A stretch of DNA of 64,000 nt, taken from positions 1,152,001 through 1,216,000 of the forward strand of contig CAWCKW010000012.1 in assembly GCA_963796285.1 (NCBI GenBank). Reading direction: 5' to 3'. The notes beneath the pieces were generated by a model, which had not been told where the DNA came from, searched no databases, and was given only the letters and a program-made list of their open reading frames with translations. Below are positions 50,098 through 60,609 of this stretch, piece by piece (positions within the stretch are counted from its first letter, which is position 1; each line of letters begins with the position of its first letter). Source of the DNA: Nitrospirota bacterium. Lineage in GTDB: Bacteria > Nitrospirota > UBA9217. Position numbers and translations under genes: made by a program.

Positions 50098-51436
50098 CTA
50101 CTTCCCACCGATCGACAGTTCCTTTACCCGGAGCGACGGGCTTCCTATCCTGCCGGAAAAGCGGAGGTCGCTGCCGACGGCATCGATGTTCTTCATCAGG
50201 TCCAGGATATTGCCCGCGATCGTGATCTCGCGCACGGGGTAGGCCTTCTTGCCCTTCTCGATCCAGAAGCCTGTTGCGCCTACGGAGAAATCGCCGGAAA
50301 TATGGTTCGCGGTATGCGCTCCCATAACCTCAGTGACGTAGAGCCCGCTGCCTGTCGAGTTGATCAGCTCCTCAAGCGAATGGGTCCCCGGTTCGATATA
50401 CAGATTCGTCACGCCCACGCCGGGCATGCCCTTGAACCCTCCGCGCATGCCGTTCCCCGTCGACACGGTCTTGTCCTTGTTCGCCGTATACGTATTGTAC
50501 AGGAACATGGCAAGCCTGCCCTTGTCGATCACCGTTTTCTTCTTCATCGGGACGGTCTCGTCGTCCGAGGGGGCGCTTCCGAGCCCTTCTGCGAGTAATC
50601 CGTCGTCATACACCGTGATGAGCGGCGCTGCTACCTCTGCTGCCGAGCTTGTTGATAAAGAGCGACCGTTTCTTCTGCACACCCTCCGCCGAGAAACCGG
50701 AGGCCATGATCGACAGGAAGTCATTGGCCACGTCCGCGTCGAGGATGACTGCGGTCTTCACCGAATCAAGATGCCGGGCGCCAAGAAGGTCGAGTGCCTT
50801 TCTCGCGGCCCTTCTCCCTACTTCCTCGATCTCCAGTTTGCGGTAATACCGCTTCACGTCGAAATCGGACCCTGCCTGCGATTCGCCCTTGTCCTCGGCA
50901 ACGACCTCGATGCTCGACATTGCCGCGGTGCCGCGGTACGAGACCTCGGCGCCGTGAGAATTCATGATCAGGGTTTCCGACTCCGAGAAGCTCGCGGAGG
51001 CCTTTCGAATGCGCTTGATCCGCTGGTCCACGCCAAAGGCCTCGCGTTCCATGGCCATGACACGGTCGATCTTTTCCTTCTCGGTCAAGGCGACCAGCTC
51101 CGGGTCATACATCGTTATGGTTTGATAATCAGCAGCAGCCTTTTCCGGGATGGAATGGAACGGATCCGGCTCGATGATCTGCGCGTTCGTCAGTGCCGAC
51201 CGTGCAAGAGTAGCGAGGGCATGGTCCGAAAGGTCGGTCGTATAAGCAAACCCCATCCTTCCGCCGACGAGCACCCGGAGGCCCGCGCCGATGTCCCTGG
51301 CGCGGTCAAAGGCATCGACCTTCTGTGCTTTGACCTCGATGCTGGTGGATGATGATGAGCGGATAAAGGCCTCGGCAGCGTCTGCCTTGAGGTCCTTCGC
51401 GAGTGAGAGGATTTTTTCGGCGATGTGTTTGTGCAT
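50098..51436 (-). CDS. pmbA: TldD/PmbA family protein, PmbA/TldE type (frameshift near 50630)
   Basis: GAGLRV...GFAYT, STGNG, GDFS, PVREITIAGN. No HExxxH motif. Confidence 0.88.
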
Positions 51437-51456
51437 AATTAACATGAAAAACCCAT

Positions 51457-51572
51457 ACCGCAAAGGCGCGAAGAGCGCGAAGGGTTATATTCATTTTACA
51501 CCTAGTCACCTGCATTTCTTTGCGACCTTGGCGGCTTCGCGGTTAAGAAGATTTTCTCTGTGTGCTCTGTGT
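51457..51572. repeat. CGCAAAG-type imperfect palindrome plus half copy
   Basis: ACCGCAAAGGCGCGAAGAGCGCGAAG...CTTTGCGACCTTGGCGGCTTCGCGGT, then TTCTCTGTGTGCTCTGTG. Confidence 0.7.
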
Positions 51573-51967: not shown

Positions 51968-52054
51968 ATAATATGGCATGCCCCCTCAAAAGTCAATAAC
52001 GAATATCGCGCGTGCGAAAAATTTCTTGCAAATATCCGCAATTTCAGATATGAT
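51968..52054. promoter_or_regulatory. divergent sigma70 promoters giving leaderless-type starts
   Basis: Minus strand TTGACT-17-TATTAT, 8 nt before the queD ATG. Plus strand TTGCAA(52026)-17-TATGAT(52049), 7 nt before ATG 52062. Confidence 0.65.
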
Positions 52055-52061
52055 TTTTTTA

Positions 52062-52541
52062 ATGGAAGTAACGAAAGAAGACCCAAGGCAAGCCATCGAA
52101 CCGCAGTTCCTCTCGCAGGCCCAGGCAAGCGGCATCACACTCCGTATCGGTCAGATGAACAAAACCGAACATGAAGGGACCATCCGCGACATCGGCCGCT
52201 ATGAGATCAATCTTGAAGAGAACGGCAGGACCGTCACCATCCTGAAGCAGGAGATGTCCTATGTCACCGCTCCCCGTCCCGTCCTCATTCTTCCCATGCC
52301 GCAGCAGTCATCCGCTTCAGCCGCACAGACCCCTGCCGATGCACCGTCAGGCAGACCCAATATCCAGCATGAGTTCCTCGACAAGGCCATAAAGGAGAAC
52401 CAGCTCCTCACGCTCTATCTTATCAACGGCCAGCGGATCAAGGCAAATATCGAGGCCTATGACAGCTTCACCATCCTGCTCAAAGAGGGCGGCAAACAGC
52501 ACCTCTACTATAAACACTCGATCACCACGATCAATCGCTAG
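52062..52541 (+). CDS. tandem two-domain Hfq/Sm-like protein
   Basis: C-domain NIQHEFL...LYLING...IEAYDSFTILL...YYKHSITTI. Degenerate N-domain IEPQFL...MNK...EGTI....YEI....ILKQEMSY. Pro/Ala/Ser linker between them. Confidence 0.85.
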   Translation: MEVTKEDPRQAIEPQFLSQAQASGITLRIGQMNKTEHEGTIRDIGRYEINLEENGRTVTILKQEMSYVTAPRPVLILPMPQQSSASAAQTPADAPSGRPNIQHEFLDKAIKENQLLTLYLINGQRIKANIEAYDSFTILLKEGGKQHLYYKHSITTINR

Positions 52542-52552
52542 AGGTACTTCCC

Positions 52553-52950
52553 ATGGAAACAAATCTTCTCGATAGAATGCTGGATGCGTACCAGACGGGG
52601 CATACTCCCGTGACCGTTACCCTCCAGAACAAGATCCGCGTTTCCGGAAGGATCAAGTGCGTTCGACAGCTACGTCATTATCATGGAAGGCCATAAACAG
52701 GAGATCCTGTACCGCCATGCGATCTCGTGCCTTTGCCCGCTTGCACAGGAGGAGCATAAGCGCCAGCCTGCCGCGAGCCGGCCGGCAATGACAAAGACAG
52801 TCCACCCGGGACCCGCAAAGAGCGCTTCGTCACGTAAACCCAGGCAAGCAGCAGCCTCAGACGGTGCCCCTATCCGCGACCGAGAGCCTCAACAACAACA
52901 TGAAGGACGGACTGCTCAAATGGATGCAGGAACAGAAGGCTGCAAAGTAG
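52553..52950 (+). CDS. second Hfq-like protein with basic disordered tail (frameshifts near 52658 and about 52880)
   Basis: GAGG SD. METNLLDRML...PVTVTLQNKIRVSGRIK/AFDSYVII...ILYRHAISCL. Tail probably ends MKDGLLKWMQEQKAAK. Confidence 0.8.
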
Positions 52951-52951
52951 C

Positions 52952-54499
52952 ATGAATCTCAGGGTCGCCGCGCTCGCTGCATTCTCCGGGATTCTTCTTG
53001 CCGTCGCATTCCCCACACTCGACCTCCACTACCTCGCCTGGATCGCCCTGCTGCCGCTGTTCTTCGCGCTCAAGGGACAGAGTGTCAAGAACGGATTCTG
53101 GCTCGGCGGAATCGCCGGGATCGTGTATTTTGCCGGCACCGTCCACTGGGTCACGAACTCCGTGCACTTTTACGGCGGCATTCCGATCGTACCGGCATCG
53201 CTCATCACCCTGCTCCTCTGCGCCTACCTGGCGCTCTACCCCGCGGTCTTCGGCGCCGCTGCCGTGCATATCAGGAAAAACCACCCCTCGCTGTTTTTTG
53301 TCGCCGCTCCCGCGCTCTGGACCACGCTCGAGCTCGCGCGCACCTACGTGTTCAGCGGCTTCCCCTGGTCGCTGCTCGGCTACTCGCAATATCTTGCCCT
53401 GCCCGTGATCCAGATAGCGGACATCACCGGCGTGTATGGCATCTCATTCCTGATCGTGCTGGTAAATGCCGTTCTCGCGGAATTCATCATGAACAGAAAA
53501 AACTATGTCGGCTTGATTACCGCCGTGGTTGCATTGATGCTCGTGCTGGGTTACGGGTTCGTGAAATTACGGACACCGGAGCAGAGGTCCGGAATGAAGG
53601 TATCGGTGGTGCAGGGAAACATCGAGCAGGACAAAAAATGGGACCCCGCATATCAGGCGGAAACGCTGGCGGTGTACACGCGGTTGACCCGGGAAGCGCT
53701 CTTGGAGCAGCCGGACCTCGTGATCTGGCCCGAAACCGCCGTACCGTTCTACTTTAGCGGTAGTGCGCCGGCAGACCAGGCCATGACCGCGGATCTCGCC
53801 GCTTTCGTGAAACAGAACAGGGTCCCGCTCCTCTTCGGCAGCCCAACCTATGAAGTAAAACCGAACAGACAGATCATCGGCCGGAACTCGGCGTTCCTGC
53901 TCTCTGCTGACGGACTGGTTGCGGCGACCTATCACAAGATCCACCTGGTGCCTTTCGGTGAGTACGTGCCTCTCAAGAATGTCCTGTTCTTTGTCGGAAA
54001 GATGGTCCAGGCGATCGGGGACTTTCAGGCCGGCGATGAGTACACGGTGATGACAGTCCCTGTTCAGGGAAATGGTGCGCATGCCGGCGCCAAGCTGAGC
54101 ACCGTCATCTGCTATGAGATCATCTTCCCCGATCTGGTCAGGCGATTTGTGGACAAGGGGGCGAACGTGATCACCACTATCACGAACGACGCATGGTTCG
54201 GCAGGACCGCTGCCCCGTACCAGCACTTCTCCATGGCGGTCTTTCGGGCTGTTGAAAACCGCGTGCCCGTGGCCCGCGCGGCGAACACCGGCATCTCGGG
54301 TTTCATTGACGCACAAGGCCACATCCTGGCCGAGTCGGGGATCTTCACCCAGGCGCACCTGACACATACGATCGTCCCGGGCACTGAAAAGACCTTTTAT
54401 ACCCGCTACGGAGACGTTTTCTCCTACCTCTGCGTGCTTGCGAGCATCGGGCTGATCATAATAAGAGGGTCCCGTCGGACAGATAAGTCTGTGCGATAA
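52952..54499 (+). CDS. lnt: apolipoprotein N-acyltransferase
   Basis: GFPW..LGYSQ, VQGNI, WPETA, KIHLVPFGEYVP, ICYEIIFP, TNDAWFG, RAANTGIS. Confidence 0.97.
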   Translation: MNLRVAALAAFSGILLAVAFPTLDLHYLAWIALLPLFFALKGQSVKNGFWLGGIAGIVYFAGTVHWVTNSVHFYGGIPIVPASLITLLLCAYLALYPAVFGAAAVHIRKNHPSLFFVAAPALWTTLELARTYVFSGFPWSLLGYSQYLALPVIQIADITGVYGISFLIVLVNAVLAEFIMNRKNYVGLITAVVALMLVLGYGFVKLRTPEQRSGMKVSVVQGNIEQDKKWDPAYQAETLAVYTRLTREALLEQPDLVIWPETAVPFYFSGSAPADQAMTADLAAFVKQNRVPLLFGSPTYEVKPNRQIIGRNSAFLLSADGLVAATYHKIHLVPFGEYVPLKNVLFFVGKMVQAIGDFQAGDEYTVMTVPVQGNGAHAGAKLSTVICYEIIFPDLVRRFVDKGANVITTITNDAWFGRTAAPYQHFSMAVFRAVENRVPVARAANTGISGFIDAQGHILAESGIFTQAHLTHTIVPGTEKTFYTRYGDVFSYLCVLASIGLIIIRGSRRTDKSVR

Positions 54500-54770
54500 T
54501 CAGAGAGAAGTGCAAATTTTAAATCAATATTTCATTGAGGAACTGATGTTTGAAGTGATAACCTTCGAATCGTATTATCCCCTTCTCCGCTTGACAGTGA
54601 ACGTAAATAATAACAGACTACTTCTTGTACTCTTGGAGTATCTGTTCTTTGCAAGAATCTCATTTTCAACTTGTATTCTTCAATCAATAGCTACCCCTCT
54701 ATAACCGCACGACATCCGCCTATGACGCCGCCGTTCCGTTGTTTACTAAAAGATGGTGTGATGACTAATT

Positions 54771-55715
54771 TTATGTTTCTACTGTCGTGGCCGTCTGTCG
54801 CAAACTCGTGATATCCCGTAACGGCGGTGCACCGAACATGCGGCCGTACTCGCGGCTGAATTGAGAAGGGCTCTCATAGCCTACCTGAAACGCCGCGGTT
54901 GTTGCATCCTGCTTTTCAGCGAGCATTAGCCGCCGCGCTTCGTTCAAACGCAGCCATTTCTGGTACTGCAGCGGGCTCATTGCCGTCACCTGCCGGAAGT
55001 GATGGTGGAAGGTCGAGGTGCTCATATTGACCTGCGCTGCGAGGTCATCGATGCGCAGCGTCTTCGTAAAGTTCCCCTTCAGCCAATCAATCGCACGCGC
55101 TATCTGATTGCTCTGGCTTCCCGTTGCTGCGATCTGTCGCAGACGCGCTCCCTGATCGCCTGTAAGCAAACGGTAGAAAATTTCGCGCTCGATGACCGGA
55201 GCAAGGATCGGGATATCCTTCGGCTCATTAAGCAGGTCGATTAGCCTTTGAAAGGCGGCTAGCAGCGGCAGCGTGACTTCGCCCGTCGCCATGCCGCGGC
55301 TCGATTGCTGGGGTCGCGGCGGTGGAAGGTTGCTGTCAACCATGAGTTGTGAAATCTCTCGCTGGTCGATGTTCAGCACGAGGCCCAGGTACGGCTTTTC
55401 CGGGCTCGCTTTGATGACTTGTACGAACGTGGGCAGATCCACGGATGTAAGCAGGAAATGGTGCGCGTCATACACATACGCGTCGTCTCCGAGATGCACG
55501 CGTTTGGCCCCTTGCGCGATCACACAGATGCGCGGTTCGTACAGGATGCTTATAGGCTCGCTCGGTTCGTCCCGTCGAGCAAGTATCAATCCCGGGATAG
55601 CGGTCTCGACCCGGTCGCTTGAACCGGTCCATCGGGCAATGCTCTTCCCCAAAACTTCGAGCGCATTTTCCATTCCATTGTTCTCATTTTTCTGCTTCAT
55701 TGAGCGCTTTATCAT
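54771..55715 (-). CDS. AraC-family regulator (YqhC-like)
   Basis: AQGAK AraC_N domain. MSPLQYQKWLRLNEARRLM, VGYESPSQFSREY. Confidence 0.93.
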   Translation of the reverse strand: MIKRSMKQKNENNGMENALEVLGKSIARWTGSSDRVETAIPGLILARRDEPSEPISILYEPRICVIAQGAKRVHLGDDAYVYDAHHFLLTSVDLPTFVQVIKASPEKPYLGLVLNIDQREISQLMVDSNLPPPRPQQSSRGMATGEVTLPLLAAFQRLIDLLNEPKDIPILAPVIEREIFYRLLTGDQGARLRQIAATGSQSNQIARAIDWLKGNFTKTLRIDDLAAQVNMSTSTFHHHFRQVTAMSPLQYQKWLRLNEARRLMLAEKQDATTAAFQVGYESPSQFSREYGRMFGAPPLRDITSLRQTATTVET

Positions 55716-55779
55716 GGATGCCTCCTGACTCTATACTACCAAACGCAACTTATCTGTCAACCCAATTATGGAAGATTTC

Positions 55780-55847
55780 GGACGATTAGGCAAGAAAAGA
55801 GCAGGATTGGTCTACCAACCTCTGCTCTTTCAGAGGTAGGATATGAT
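55780..55847 (+). promoter_or_regulatory. AraC-activated promoter with tandem half-sites
   Basis: GGACGATTAGGCAA and GCAGGATTGGTCTA, 21 bp apart, followed by TATGAT at about 55842. Confidence 0.55.
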
Positions 55848-55864
55848 CGTTAATAGGAACTCGC

Positions 55865-55957
55865 TCTCCTTCAAAGAGAGGGCTGGGGTGAGGATGGGTT
55901 AGCGCCTCGTTCCGTAACGATCCATCCCCACCTTGATCTTCCCCTTGAAGGGGAGGC
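55865..55957. repeat. REP-like palindrome (CTCTCC...GAGAGGG.TGGGGTGAGG type)
   Basis: CTCTCCTTCAAAGAGAGGGCTGGGGTGAGGATGGG / CCATCCCCACCTTGATCTTCCCCTTGAAGGGGAGG. Confidence 0.65.
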
Positions 55958-55973
55958 AGCTTTGATAAAATAG

Positions 55974-57391
<1,418 letters not shown>

Positions 57392-57418
57392 TTGAAAAGC
57401 CCTGACCGACAGACCACT

Positions 57419-58513
57419 ATGCGATATACTAAGATCAGGGACAAAGAGCTGCAAGGAGGCAGCTTGCCTAGTCGGATATTAACACTGCTCTGGGTCGGGA
57501 TCTCCATCTCATTTGTCACTGGTCGAGATATCACTGCTCAAGAGACCAAGGAACGCCCTATGACACCTTACAGCACGACAACAGCATCGAAAGATCATGG
57601 AAGCTATGACCATATAACAACCCATGATACCGTGCGCGACATCGTGAACCATCCGGCATTTAAAGGCTTTAGCCAGCTCATCCTTCCGAAGGATAATAAC
57701 GCCTATTACTATGACACGCCGCTCAGTAATGTTCGTGCGCTCATGCCTTATCACAGCCATGTGGACCCCGACATTGTAGTGGCTGCGCTTAACCACATGA
57801 TTGATGAAGTCAAAGACGGCAAAACCATATTCTACGATTTCTACACTGAGCAGCAAAAGCAGGAGGATCCCGCCAAAGAAGAACACAGGACTCTTCTACT
57901 TCCGGGGAGAACCGGGAGCCCCGTTTGCCATTGTGTGCCCTGGCGGAGGATTTTCCTACGTCGGCTCCCTGCATGAAGGTTTTCCGCTCGCTTTGGAGAT
58001 AAGTAAGAAGAAATATAACGCTTTTGTCATACGGTATCGCATAGGGAGCGAGCAAAGTGCGACAGCGGATCTGGCGGCGGCGATAGCCTACATTTTCAGG
58101 AACGCTGAAGCACTCAGGGTAAGCACTGAAGATTACTCTTTATGGGGAGGTTCTGCCGGCGCCAGGATAGTGGGCAATATTGCTTTACGCGGAGTTGCAA
58201 CTTACGCGGGCGGCAATCTGCCGAAACCATCTATAGCGGTTATAGGGAATACCGGTCAATCAAGCTATTCAAAATATTTTCTTTGTCCTACTTTTATTCG
58301 GTGAGCGAAAATGATCTTATAGCGAATATTGCGGCCGTTGACAAGCGCGTCGAAAATCTGAGAAATGCCGGAGTAGCGGTCGAATATCGTAGATATAGAA
58401 TCTGCCGGTCACGGCTTCGGGTTTGGAACAGGCACCGATGCCGAAGGATGGTTAGACCACGCCGTTCGGTTTTGGGAAAAGCATTTGTCCAAGGGAGCAA
58501 AATGACACTATGA
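57419..58513 (+). CDS. alpha/beta hydrolase (several frameshifts)
   Basis: CPGGGF, WGGSAGA nucleophile elbow, GHGFG. Confidence 0.8.
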
Positions 58514-58609
58514 GCAACCATTCCATTCGTAAGGTGGCCGAACAATAATATGAGGTTACTCCGTTGGAAGATGTACAATTTGTTTATGGCACATGAGAGG
58601 AGATAAACC

Positions 58610-59628
58610 ATGCGAGGAGCTGTTCTCTACGGGCCGCGCGACGTGCGTTTCGAGGAGCGCGAAGACCCGAAGATCATCAAGCCGACCGATGCCATCATCA
58701 GGATCTCGGCCACCTGCGTGTGCGGGTCCGATCTGTGGCCTTACCGCGGCATCAACCCGATCACCCAGCCGACACCGATGGGGCACGAGTACTGCGGCAT
58801 CGTCGAGGAGGTCGGGAGCGCGGTCACCACGGTCAAGCGCGGCCAGTTCGTGATCGGTTCGTTCTTCGCCTCCGACAACACCTGCCCCACCTGCCAGATC
58901 GGCTATCAGTCGTCCTGCCAGCATCGCGAACTTATGGGCGGTGCGCAGGCGCCCTTTCTGCGCGTCCCGCACGCGGACGGCACCCTGGTGGCGACTCCGG
59001 AGGTTCCCTCGGACGACCTGATCCCGAGCCTGCTGACGCTCTCCGACGTCATGGGCACCGGCTGGTTCGCCGCCGACGCGGCGCAACGTAAAGCCGGGCA
59101 AGACGGTCGTGGTCGTCGGCGACGGCGCGGTCGGACTGCTCGGCGTGCTTTCCGCAAAGCAGATGGGTGCCGAGCGGATCATCGCGATGAGCCGCCATGA
59201 GTCGCGGACAGAAGCTCGCCCGCGAGTTCGGCGCGACCGACATCGTGACCGAGCGCGGTGACGAGGGCGTGGCCCGGATCAAGGAGATGACCAACGGAAT
59301 CGGCGCTGACTCGGTGCTGGAGTGCGTCGGCACCCAGGAGTCGATGATGCAGGCGATCCATTCCACCCGCCCGGGCGGATACGTGGGCTACGTCGGCGTC
59401 CCGCACGGGGTCGAGCTCAACGGCCAGGAGCTGTTCTTCGCCCACGTCCATCTCCACGGCGGCCCCGCGCCGGTGCGCCGCTACCTGCCCGATCTGATCG
59501 GTCTTGTGCTGAAGGGGAAGATCGACCCCGGCAAGGTATTCGACCTGACGCTGCCCCTCGACCAGGTGGCCGAGGGCTACCGCGCGATGGACGAGCGCCG
59601 CGCGATCAAGACGCTGCTGCGGCCATAA
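58610..59628 (+). CDS. zinc-dependent alcohol dehydrogenase (frameshifts near 59085 and 59200)
   Basis: CVCGSDL, GHE, CPTCQIG..SSC, VVGDGAVG. Confidence 0.92.
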
Positions 59629-59656
59629 AAATTAAACTAGGCAAAGGAGAATACAC

Positions 59657-59982
59657 ATGTCAGACAGCGATGTAAAAAAAGCGACAGATGAGTTGAAGGA
59701 CTAGCGCCGGATTATGCGCAATTGACACAGGATTTGCTTTTCGGTGATGTTTGGAAGACGTCCGCCGCTCTCGCAGCGCGATAAAAGCCTGATCACGGTG
59801 GCACTGTTTGGTTGCGCTGAATCAGAATCGAGCAGGTCGAATTCCACCTGAAGAAGGCTATGGAAAACGGCCTTACGAAGGAAGAGCTCGTGGCCGCGAT
59901 CACGCATATTGCGTTTTATGCCGGATGGCCGACAGCGGCGTCGGGCCTTAATCACCTGAAAAAAGTGATCGATCAGAAATAA
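59657..59982 (+). CDS. carboxymuconolactone decarboxylase (AhpD-like) family protein (frameshifted)
   Basis: LLFGDVW, LSQRDKSLITVA, FHLKKAMENGLTKEEL...HIAFYAGWP. Confidence 0.85.
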
Positions 59983-59999
59983 GTGAGGAGTATTTAATT

Positions 60000-60539
60000 A
60001 TGAATTTATCTAGTAAAAAATGCCTGATAGCTTATTTTTCCCGGAAGGGGCAAAATTATGTCAGTGGGAGGCTTGTCGATCTAAAAGTCGGCAATACCGA
60101 AGTTGTCGCAAACATGATCCAGAAAATAGCGGGCGGCGTTCTGTTTCATATTGAATCCGTCACAGCCTATCCCAACGATTATAAGGAAGCTACGGAAGTA
60201 GCCAAGAATGAACTGCGTGCCAAAGCCAGGCCGAAGCTGACAGGACAGGTTGAGAACATGGGGGCATATGATGTGATCTTTTTGGGATATCCGAATTGGT
60301 GGGGAACGATGCCCATGCCGGTCTTCTCGTTCCTGGAAAGCTATGACTTTTCCGGAAAGACAATTGTACCATTTTGCACCCACGAGGGCAGCGGAATGGC
60401 CCATAGCGAGAAGGATATTGCCAAAGCATGTCCCAAAGCCACTGTGCTGAAGGGAATCGCTATTCATGGAACCAATGCAGGTTCCGCGAATTCAGATGTG
60501 TCGAAATGGATTGATGGGCTGAGTATTTCCTTATTTTGA
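60000..60539 (+). CDS. flavodoxin
   Basis: IAYFS...GNT, YDVIFLGYPNWWGTMP, PFCTHEGSG. Confidence 0.92.
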   Translation: MNLSSKKCLIAYFSRKGQNYVSGRLVDLKVGNTEVVANMIQKIAGGVLFHIESVTAYPNDYKEATEVAKNELRAKARPKLTGQVENMGAYDVIFLGYPNWWGTMPMPVFSFLESYDFSGKTIVPFCTHEGSGMAHSEKDIAKACPKATVLKGIAIHGTNAGSANSDVSKWIDGLSISLF

Positions 60540-60609
60540 CAGCAGATAGGAAAAAGGAGATCGCAATGAACCTCCGTGGTATAAACTCTTAATGACATCT
60601 GCATCAATT

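Follow-up and report, generated by a model that had tools for sequence, protein, structure and literature searches.

Bacterial Hfq is the textbook homomeric Sm ring, and rings made of different paralogues are regarded as a eukaryotic hallmark. The phyletic distribution of Hfq is said to have been treated by Sun et al. in 2002. The Hfq paralogues that share a genome in Burkholderia and in Bacillus anthracis are unlinked genes, each supposed to form a ring of its own. The two-domain Hfq of Zymomonas mobilis, ZMO0347, is to our knowledge the sole Hfq of its genome, and we know of no partner gene for it. ZMO0347 and six other Sphingomonadales have two Sm-like domains, and the authors asked whether three chains make up a ring (PMC2877685); several Hfq-like genes per genome are described for Burkholderia (Hfq and Hfq2) and B. 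anthracis (Hfq1–3) (PMC6200039); and Sm(F-E-G)2 and Lsm(6-5-7)2 are eukaryotic hexamers in which three paralogues are each used twice (PMC3710371). The full-text literature that we searched, with most subscription journals outside its coverage, yielded nothing on bacterial Hfq rings of mixed composition or on the operon described here, and Hfq of Nitrospirota came up only in passing mentions.

Here we describe two adjacent genes, gene 1 and gene 2, which lie directly upstream of lnt in a 64,000-nt stretch of a Nitrospirota contig (hereafter the window) and encode three Hfq-type modules, A and B in gene 1 and C in gene 2. Like the proteins of family NF010691 (PRK14091.1; Zymomonas mobilis ZMO0347), gene 1 carries two Hfq folds in one polypeptide of about 160–180 aa. 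Both domains of NF010691-type proteins are canonical and give two TIGR02383 stretches, whereas the first domain of gene 1 is degenerate. Against the 176-position NF010691 model, gene 1 scores 43.1 bits (cut-off 270), matching the second half of the model only, and its assignment to that family was rejected. The system further differs from ZMO0347 in having a partner gene and a separate canonical hfq, and from the Burkholderia and B. anthracis paralogues in that two of its three extra modules share a polypeptide, to which the third is coupled through translation. The ring proposed below resembles Sm(F-E-G)2 and Lsm(6-5-7)2 in using three paralogous modules twice, with co-assembly being predicted here. 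The eukaryotic proteins belong to the LSM family, whereas the present modules are of Hfq type: with Pfam LSM (PF01423), gene 2 scores 14.7 bits against a cut-off of 23.4, and gene 1 has no match.

Three Hfq-type modules in two adjacent genes

The locus comprises the following features, given in window coordinates with the basis of each assignment in brackets.

52026..52054, + strand: promoter-like site, TTGCAA, 17-nt spacer, TATGAT (consensus scan match only)
52062..52541, + strand: gene 1, two-module Hfq protein A-linker-B, 159 aa (ORF, translation)
52092..52277, + strand: module A, aa 11–72, degenerate Hfq fold (Pfam, AlphaFold2, superposition)
52278..52355, + strand: linker, aa 73–98, rich in Pro, Ala, Ser and Gln, predicted disordered (low pLDDT, variable in alignment)
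52356..52538, + strand: module B, aa 99–159, canonical Hfq domain (Pfam, TIGR02383)
52541..52545, + strand: Shine-Dalgarno-like GAGGT for gene 2, overlapping the gene 1 stop codon (sequence reading)
52553..52950, + strand: gene 2, module C plus tail plus helix, about 131 aa (three-frame translations, alignment to the orthologue of relative G004)
52553..52739, + strand: module C, gene 2 aa 1–62, Hfq fold with YRH (Pfam on read-through, AlphaFold2 of the orthologue)
52740..52887, + strand: basic Pro-rich tail of gene 2, predicted disordered (pLDDT 45–47 over residues 70–110 of the orthologue)
52888..52947, + strand: conserved C-terminal helix of gene 2 (…MKDGLLKWMQEQKAAK) (AlphaFold2 of the orthologue, alignment)
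52952..54499, + strand: lnt, apolipoprotein N-acyltransferase (TIGR00546, 365.6 bits, cut-off 132.9)

The two halves of gene 1 differ in how readily sequence models recognize them. Module B passes both Hfq cut-offs: Pfam Hfq (PF17209) matches residues 101–157 at 79.2 bits (cut-off 27) and TIGR02383 matches residues 100–157 at 83.4 bits (cut-off 61.7), the latter model finding one stretch only, and the nearest solved structures are Bacillus subtilis and Aquifex Hfq chains. The N-terminal 82 residues on their own reach 18.7 bits with Pfam Hfq, below the cut-off. An AlphaFold2 model of gene 1, computed from an alignment of 57 sequences (pLDDT 85.6, pTM 0.78), contains two Sm folds, with a helix (residues 12–23) and five strands in A and a helix (residues 101–111) and five strands in B. 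The connecting linker has pLDDT values below 50 over residues 81–96 and is variable in the alignment. Residues 8–77 of the model superpose on solved Hfq chains with a Z score of 9.4 and an RMSD of 0.9–1.3 Å over 66–68 residues, at 15–23% sequence identity. The model and the superposition together indicate that the N-terminal half of gene 1 is an Sm/Hfq fold barely visible to sequence models. Two tandem Sm folds had been claimed for this gene in a preliminary description of the locus, which named a non-Sm N-terminal region as refuting its reading; the model contains both folds.

Module C in gene 2 lies between these extremes in its scores. Read through the first of two frame breaks (discussed below), gene 2 reaches 54.4 bits with Pfam Hfq (cut-off 27), and module C of an intact orthologue reaches 48 bits with TIGR02383, below the cut-off of 61.7. 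In an AlphaFold2 model of the orthologue from the close relative G004, residues 1–62 form the Sm core, with a helix (residues 5–15) and five strands. A disordered, basic, Pro-rich stretch (residues 63–110) follows, and a terminal helix (residues 111–128) is predicted with pLDDT values of 71–74. A third Hfq domain with a YRH motif and a basic tail, 11 nt downstream of gene 1, was thus correctly recognized in the preliminary description. Among 56 gene 2 sequences from distant families, W122 of the C-terminal helix is invariant and L119 and L120 are nearly so; the tail differs between lineages in both length and sequence. In one locus of family f14 (L084, G054:C18), the gene 2 orthologue is 241 aa long, with a longer tail and with about 60 residues more in its Sm core, located between strand 3 and the strand that carries YRH.

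To compare the modules with canonical Hfq, we aligned 57 A, 57 B and 56 C modules with 16 canonical Nitrospirota Hfq cores, taking the genome's own Hfq as the reference. The motif columns read as follows.

Canonical Q (in NLQD): B, Q; C, L; A, E
Canonical rim RKEK: B, IKEN; C, LAGQ (LTGH in a close relative); A, QASG
Canonical YLVNG: B, YLING (Tyr only in part of the lineages); C, TLQNK; A, GQMNK
Canonical FDNF: B, YDNF; C, FDSY; A, IGRY
Canonical YKHA: B, YKHA; C, YRHA; A, LKQE

From Escherichia coli and Staphylococcus aureus Hfq, we take YKH, the Gln and the aromatic residue to form the proximal uridine pocket, YLVNG the distal A-site and RKEK the rim arginine patch. All three modules share with canonical Hfq the predicted helix-plus-five-strand fold, and all three keep a pore aromatic residue and the basic residue of the YKH motif. 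The complete canonical pocket is found only in B, which has Q102, F136 and Y150-K151-H152. In module A the pore aromatic residue is retained as Y47 and the Lys as K62, with LKQE in place of YKHA. Across the alignment, the invariant residues are E13, G39, G45 and K62 in A (with Y47 nearly invariant), Q102, D134, T137, Y150, K151 and H152 in B, and G32, D38, R54 and H55 in C. The locus differs from canonical Hfq in distributing three unlike modules over two genes, one of them below the Pfam cut-off, in having the distal YLVNG motif only in B, and in lacking the rim arginine patch from A, B and C alike. The alignment agrees with the preliminary description on both surfaces: only B keeps the distal-face Tyr and Gly, the Gly being replaced by Lys in A and C, and the rim arginines are missing from all three modules. 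Judging by the changed pocket residues, RNA specificity may be altered.

Conservation and coupling of gene 1, gene 2 and lnt

Full-length matches to gene 1 occur in 23 of the 24 other genomes of family f1, and a 301-genome sample of the phylum yields whole-length matches in families f1, f3, f6, f7 and f14. Most other families in that sample have a single canonical hfq only. In four families we found no Hfq-like match at E values up to 1e-5 (0/50 genomes in f9, 0/28 in f10, 0/11 in f16 and 0/25 in f17); many of these genomes are 99–100% complete. A protein collection holds 543 gene 1 homologues of similar length, which are called 'host factor-I protein' where they are named at all.

The order of the three genes was followed in 68 distinct loci, a set from which nine duplicates of identical DNA had been removed. 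In 64 of these, gene 1 is followed immediately by gene 2, and the remaining 4 sequences end within about 350 nt of gene 1. The next gene is lnt in 60 loci; the other 8 sequences end too early, and they include the window's own locus, for which the window itself shows lnt at 52952. The two Hfq-type genes either overlap or, in most cases, are separated by 5–18 nt with GAGG over the stop codon, the junction keeping TAGAGGT or TGAGGT among relatives. Between gene 2 and lnt, 45 of 59 loci have a gap of 1 nt and 8 have an overlap. The window itself has 11 nt between gene 1 and gene 2 and 1 nt between gene 2 and lnt. The lnt ribosome-binding site (GAAGG upstream of the lnt ATG) sits within the codons for the C-terminal helix of gene 2.

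The source genome carries a canonical hfq as well (109 bits), immediately after miaA, and a canonical hfq is found in nearly all operon-carrying genomes. Because a separate canonical miaA-hfq pair is present, gene 1 and gene 2 constitute an additional system, which also differs from canonical Hfq in its lnt context. Downstream of the canonical miaA-hfq pair (L001, G000:C12:1354680-1357865) lies a phosphorylase-superfamily gene, not hflX. The pair had been described as coupled to lnt and outside the usual miaA-hfq-hflX context, with its conservation in relatives and a canonical hfq elsewhere as points to settle; the coupling holds, the gene1-gene2-lnt order recurs in five Nitrospirota families, and the canonical gene is there beside miaA.

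In a tree of 70 module sequences, A forms one clade (support 99), C another (support 98) and canonical Hfq a third (support 81), with B falling into two unresolved groups; the alignment behind this tree has only 64 columns, and the program flagged long branches. The separate clades of A, C and canonical Hfq place the origin of the three modules before these families diverged. When 1.84 billion cluster representatives were searched with a profile, 3624 proteins were retrieved at E values up to 0.001, and the whole A+B profile was matched in one stretch by about 11 clusters. Four of these (P0141, P0146, P0155 and P0272) have a degenerate-plus-canonical two-module layout and are unlike the Nitrospirota lineages fetched. 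A search for longer proteins, which is crowded by long proteins in general, found no A-B-C fusion, and two candidates from it proved to be gene calls extended upstream.

Upstream of gene 1, the sequence cTTGCAA-17-TAT(g/c)AT recurs at equal distance from the ATG in most family-f1 relatives. The second promoter hexamer ends 7 nt before the gene 1 ATG, with no Shine-Dalgarno sequence in between, so the gene 1 mRNA is possibly leaderless or has a very short leader, and gene 1 may be translated from a leaderless mRNA made at this putative promoter. Between 50000 and 56000, Rfam gave no match at its gathering thresholds, and terminator-like sites between 51500 and 54900 showed no excess over shuffled sequence (4 against a shuffle mean of 3.6). 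Contigs from a soil metatranscriptome (run X17) cover genes 1 and 2 of close relatives over window positions 52041–52797; one of them extends upstream of the promoter, so DNA carry-over or read-through is possible and these contigs are not proof of transcription. Contig depth and holes over the locus were given no weight for expression or absence. Directly after lnt, the window carries about 6 kb of DNA (54534–60583) that is extra relative to G004, whose sequence resumes at about 60583; this insert opens with an AraC-type regulator gene on the minus strand (54771–55715).

Gene 2 as assembled in the window shifts frame twice, through +1 insertions at 52655 (an extra A) and at about 52850, and it has an in-frame +3 at about 52825 relative to G004, which is 97% identical in DNA and has an intact 130-aa orthologue. 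A single indel near 52658 had been reported; a break is indeed there, at 52655, but a second insertion is also present. One reading of the two frameshifts within a single 400-nt gene, between an intact gene 1 and an intact lnt, is that gene 2 is a genuine pseudogene of this strain, with the system decaying and only gene 1 functional. At the first break, however, contigs from all four public runs lack the extra base (X1 and X2 at 52655, X3 and X17 at 52658), and at the second, X1 and X2, the sole covering runs, lack one base at 52849/52851. The contig of X1, the best DNA run, has 7 other differences and exactly 2 gaps over 52601–53010. Similar indels lie nearby: over 4.4 kb, comparison of the window with G004 shows 4 uncompensated 1-nt indels, and one of these (50639) splits the pmbA/tldD metallopeptidase gene (50098–51463, minus strand), 2 kb away, into two overlapping ORFs. 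The same gene in G004 is broken elsewhere, at about 51245 in window coordinates, which points to single-base indel noise in both assemblies, and lnt is in 2–6 pieces in several related assemblies. Apart from the extra bases, gene 2 is as conserved as its neighbours. Because the extra bases are absent from contigs and relatives and similar indels occur nearby, the frame breaks are most likely consensus errors of the assembly, and decay of gene 2 in this strain appears highly improbable. In relatives gene 2 is intact, and for the lineage the pseudogene that the preliminary description had named as a threat to its proposal does not apply.

Composition of the predicted ring

To examine whether the three modules are compatible with one ring, we folded two copies of gene 1 with two copies of residues 1–72 of a gene 2 orthologue, each chain with its own alignment. 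The paired sequences of the two genes, 56 in all, represent few lineages. This 2+2 assembly, the sole one folded, gave ipSAE values of 0.84, 0.87 and 0.87, compared with 0.00 for the best of three controls, which were unrelated proteins and included no other Hfq. In calibration, 58 of 80 solved complexes attained the ipSAE mark, as did 2 of 110 mismatched pairs; the calibration used single-chain pairs, whereas the present prediction had four chains. The runs share at least 81% of their contacts, and partner pLDDT is at least 83. In the predicted assembly, strand 5 of B (residues 154–159) contacts strand 4 of C (residues 49–53), and strand 5 of C (residues 55–62) together with the start of the helix contacts strand 4 of A (residues 56–61) of the other gene 1 chain. 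With these contacts the ring closes in the alternating order A-B-C-A-B-C.

Three features of the method bear on how this score is read. The predictor also passes close cousins of true partners (10 of 12 colicin pairs), the alignments were built for this analysis, and the predicted interface is the one seen in every solved Hfq hexamer. For this last reason the score indicates compatibility and is not proof of the mixed ring; it may derive from likeness to solved Hfq homohexamers. The heterohexamer put forward in the preliminary description, two copies of each protein closing an ABCABC ring, is therefore carried part of the way: three coupled folds and an intact gene 2 are borne out, and the 2+2 prediction closes such a ring, but the prediction cannot separate a true mixed ring from hexamer likeness. 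We consider it an even call whether two gene 1 and two gene 2 proteins build one A-B-C-A-B-C ring. Such a ring would be compatible with the conservation of the operon, the translational coupling of its genes, the old A and C clades and the 2+2 prediction.

The same proteins might instead build two separate rings, a pseudo-hexameric (A-B)3 trimer of gene 1 and a C6 homohexamer of gene 2, working in a common pathway either in parallel or one upon the other. Hfq rings are as a rule homomeric. For the two-domain Hfq of Sphingomonadales a trimer has been suggested, though untested (PMC2877685), and the representative library holds many other proteins of 140–200 aa that have two canonical Hfq stretches and no known third partner. 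Module C keeps its YRH motif, a pore Tyr and a normal Sm fold, and nothing in it forbids C6; operon partners, moreover, need not share one complex, a general caution that applies to the mixed ring. Against separate rings, none of the 64 loci of sufficient length shows gene 2 away from gene 1, and the junction of the two genes, an overlap or a 5–18-nt spacer whose ribosome-binding site covers the stop codon, is typical for subunits produced in a fixed ratio. The 2+2 prediction, for the one assembly folded, also closes a mixed ring at high confidence. Co-occurrence, coupling and the presence of three old modules, half of the six that a ring needs, favour a mixed ring over separate ones, not decisively, and we regard separate rings as possible but rather unlikely. 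Other arrangements can be drawn: mixing with canonical Hfq, heptamers and the like, or no RNA-binding ring at all, with the modules instead assisting the expression of lnt or the Lnt protein at the membrane. The canonical hfq in this genome and in nearly all operon carriers would make the first of these feasible, and Sm rings of 5 to 8 subunits are known (PMC3710371); yet canonical Hfq groups apart from A, B and C in the tree and has lost none of its own motifs. An accessory role would suit the link to lnt, which is as conserved as the pair itself, and the end helix of gene 2, which is conserved as protein across families with less than 30% identity. Nothing that we found links Hfq folds to Lnt, however, and the conservation of the last gene 2 codons is explained in part by the lnt ribosome-binding site within them. 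We give these other arrangements, taken together, a slim chance. The mixed ring, plausible and with about as much speaking for it as against, is our leading hypothesis.

A proposed second Hfq system

We propose that gene 1, gene 2 and lnt form a three-gene operon that would serve certain Nitrospirota as a conserved second Hfq system, probably starting from the promoter-like site directly before the gene 1 start codon. Gene 1 would contribute a remodelled fold A fused to a canonical B, and gene 2 a diverged C, to which it would add a basic disordered tail and a conserved, amphipathic end helix. The six modules of the mixed ring would be held by the strand-4 to strand-5 pairing usual for Hfq. 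Such a ring would still bind RNA at its pore face, with the basic gene 2 tail possibly in place of the rim patch, and would be expected to act as an RNA binder of altered, two-fold-symmetric specificity.

A bolder version of this proposal, which we put forward as speculation and think improbable, is that gene 1 and gene 2 encode an (A-B-C)2 heterohexamer that is obligate. It would be the first heteromeric Sm ring of natural origin in bacteria, and it would have evolved, parallel to the eukaryotic Sm/Lsm rings, through duplication, fusion and subfunctionalisation. The conserved amphipathic helix would anchor it at the membrane or on Lnt, and envelope or lipoprotein mRNAs would be controlled where they are translated.

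Hfq-type modules and two-domain Hfq proteins are known; the fused-plus-single, lnt-coupled arrangement appears to be new. The annotation 'host factor-I' conceals this distinct architecture in more than 500 database proteins. The coupling to lnt, equally conserved, poses a second question beside the composition of the ring. What these Nitrospirota maintain is a conserved bacterial operon with three Hfq modules, each of them old and under its own constraint, and three is a number that suits a ring of six. It would offer a simple, expressible system in which to study the transition from homomer to obligate heteromer and how an asymmetric Hfq surface may bear on the choice of RNA.
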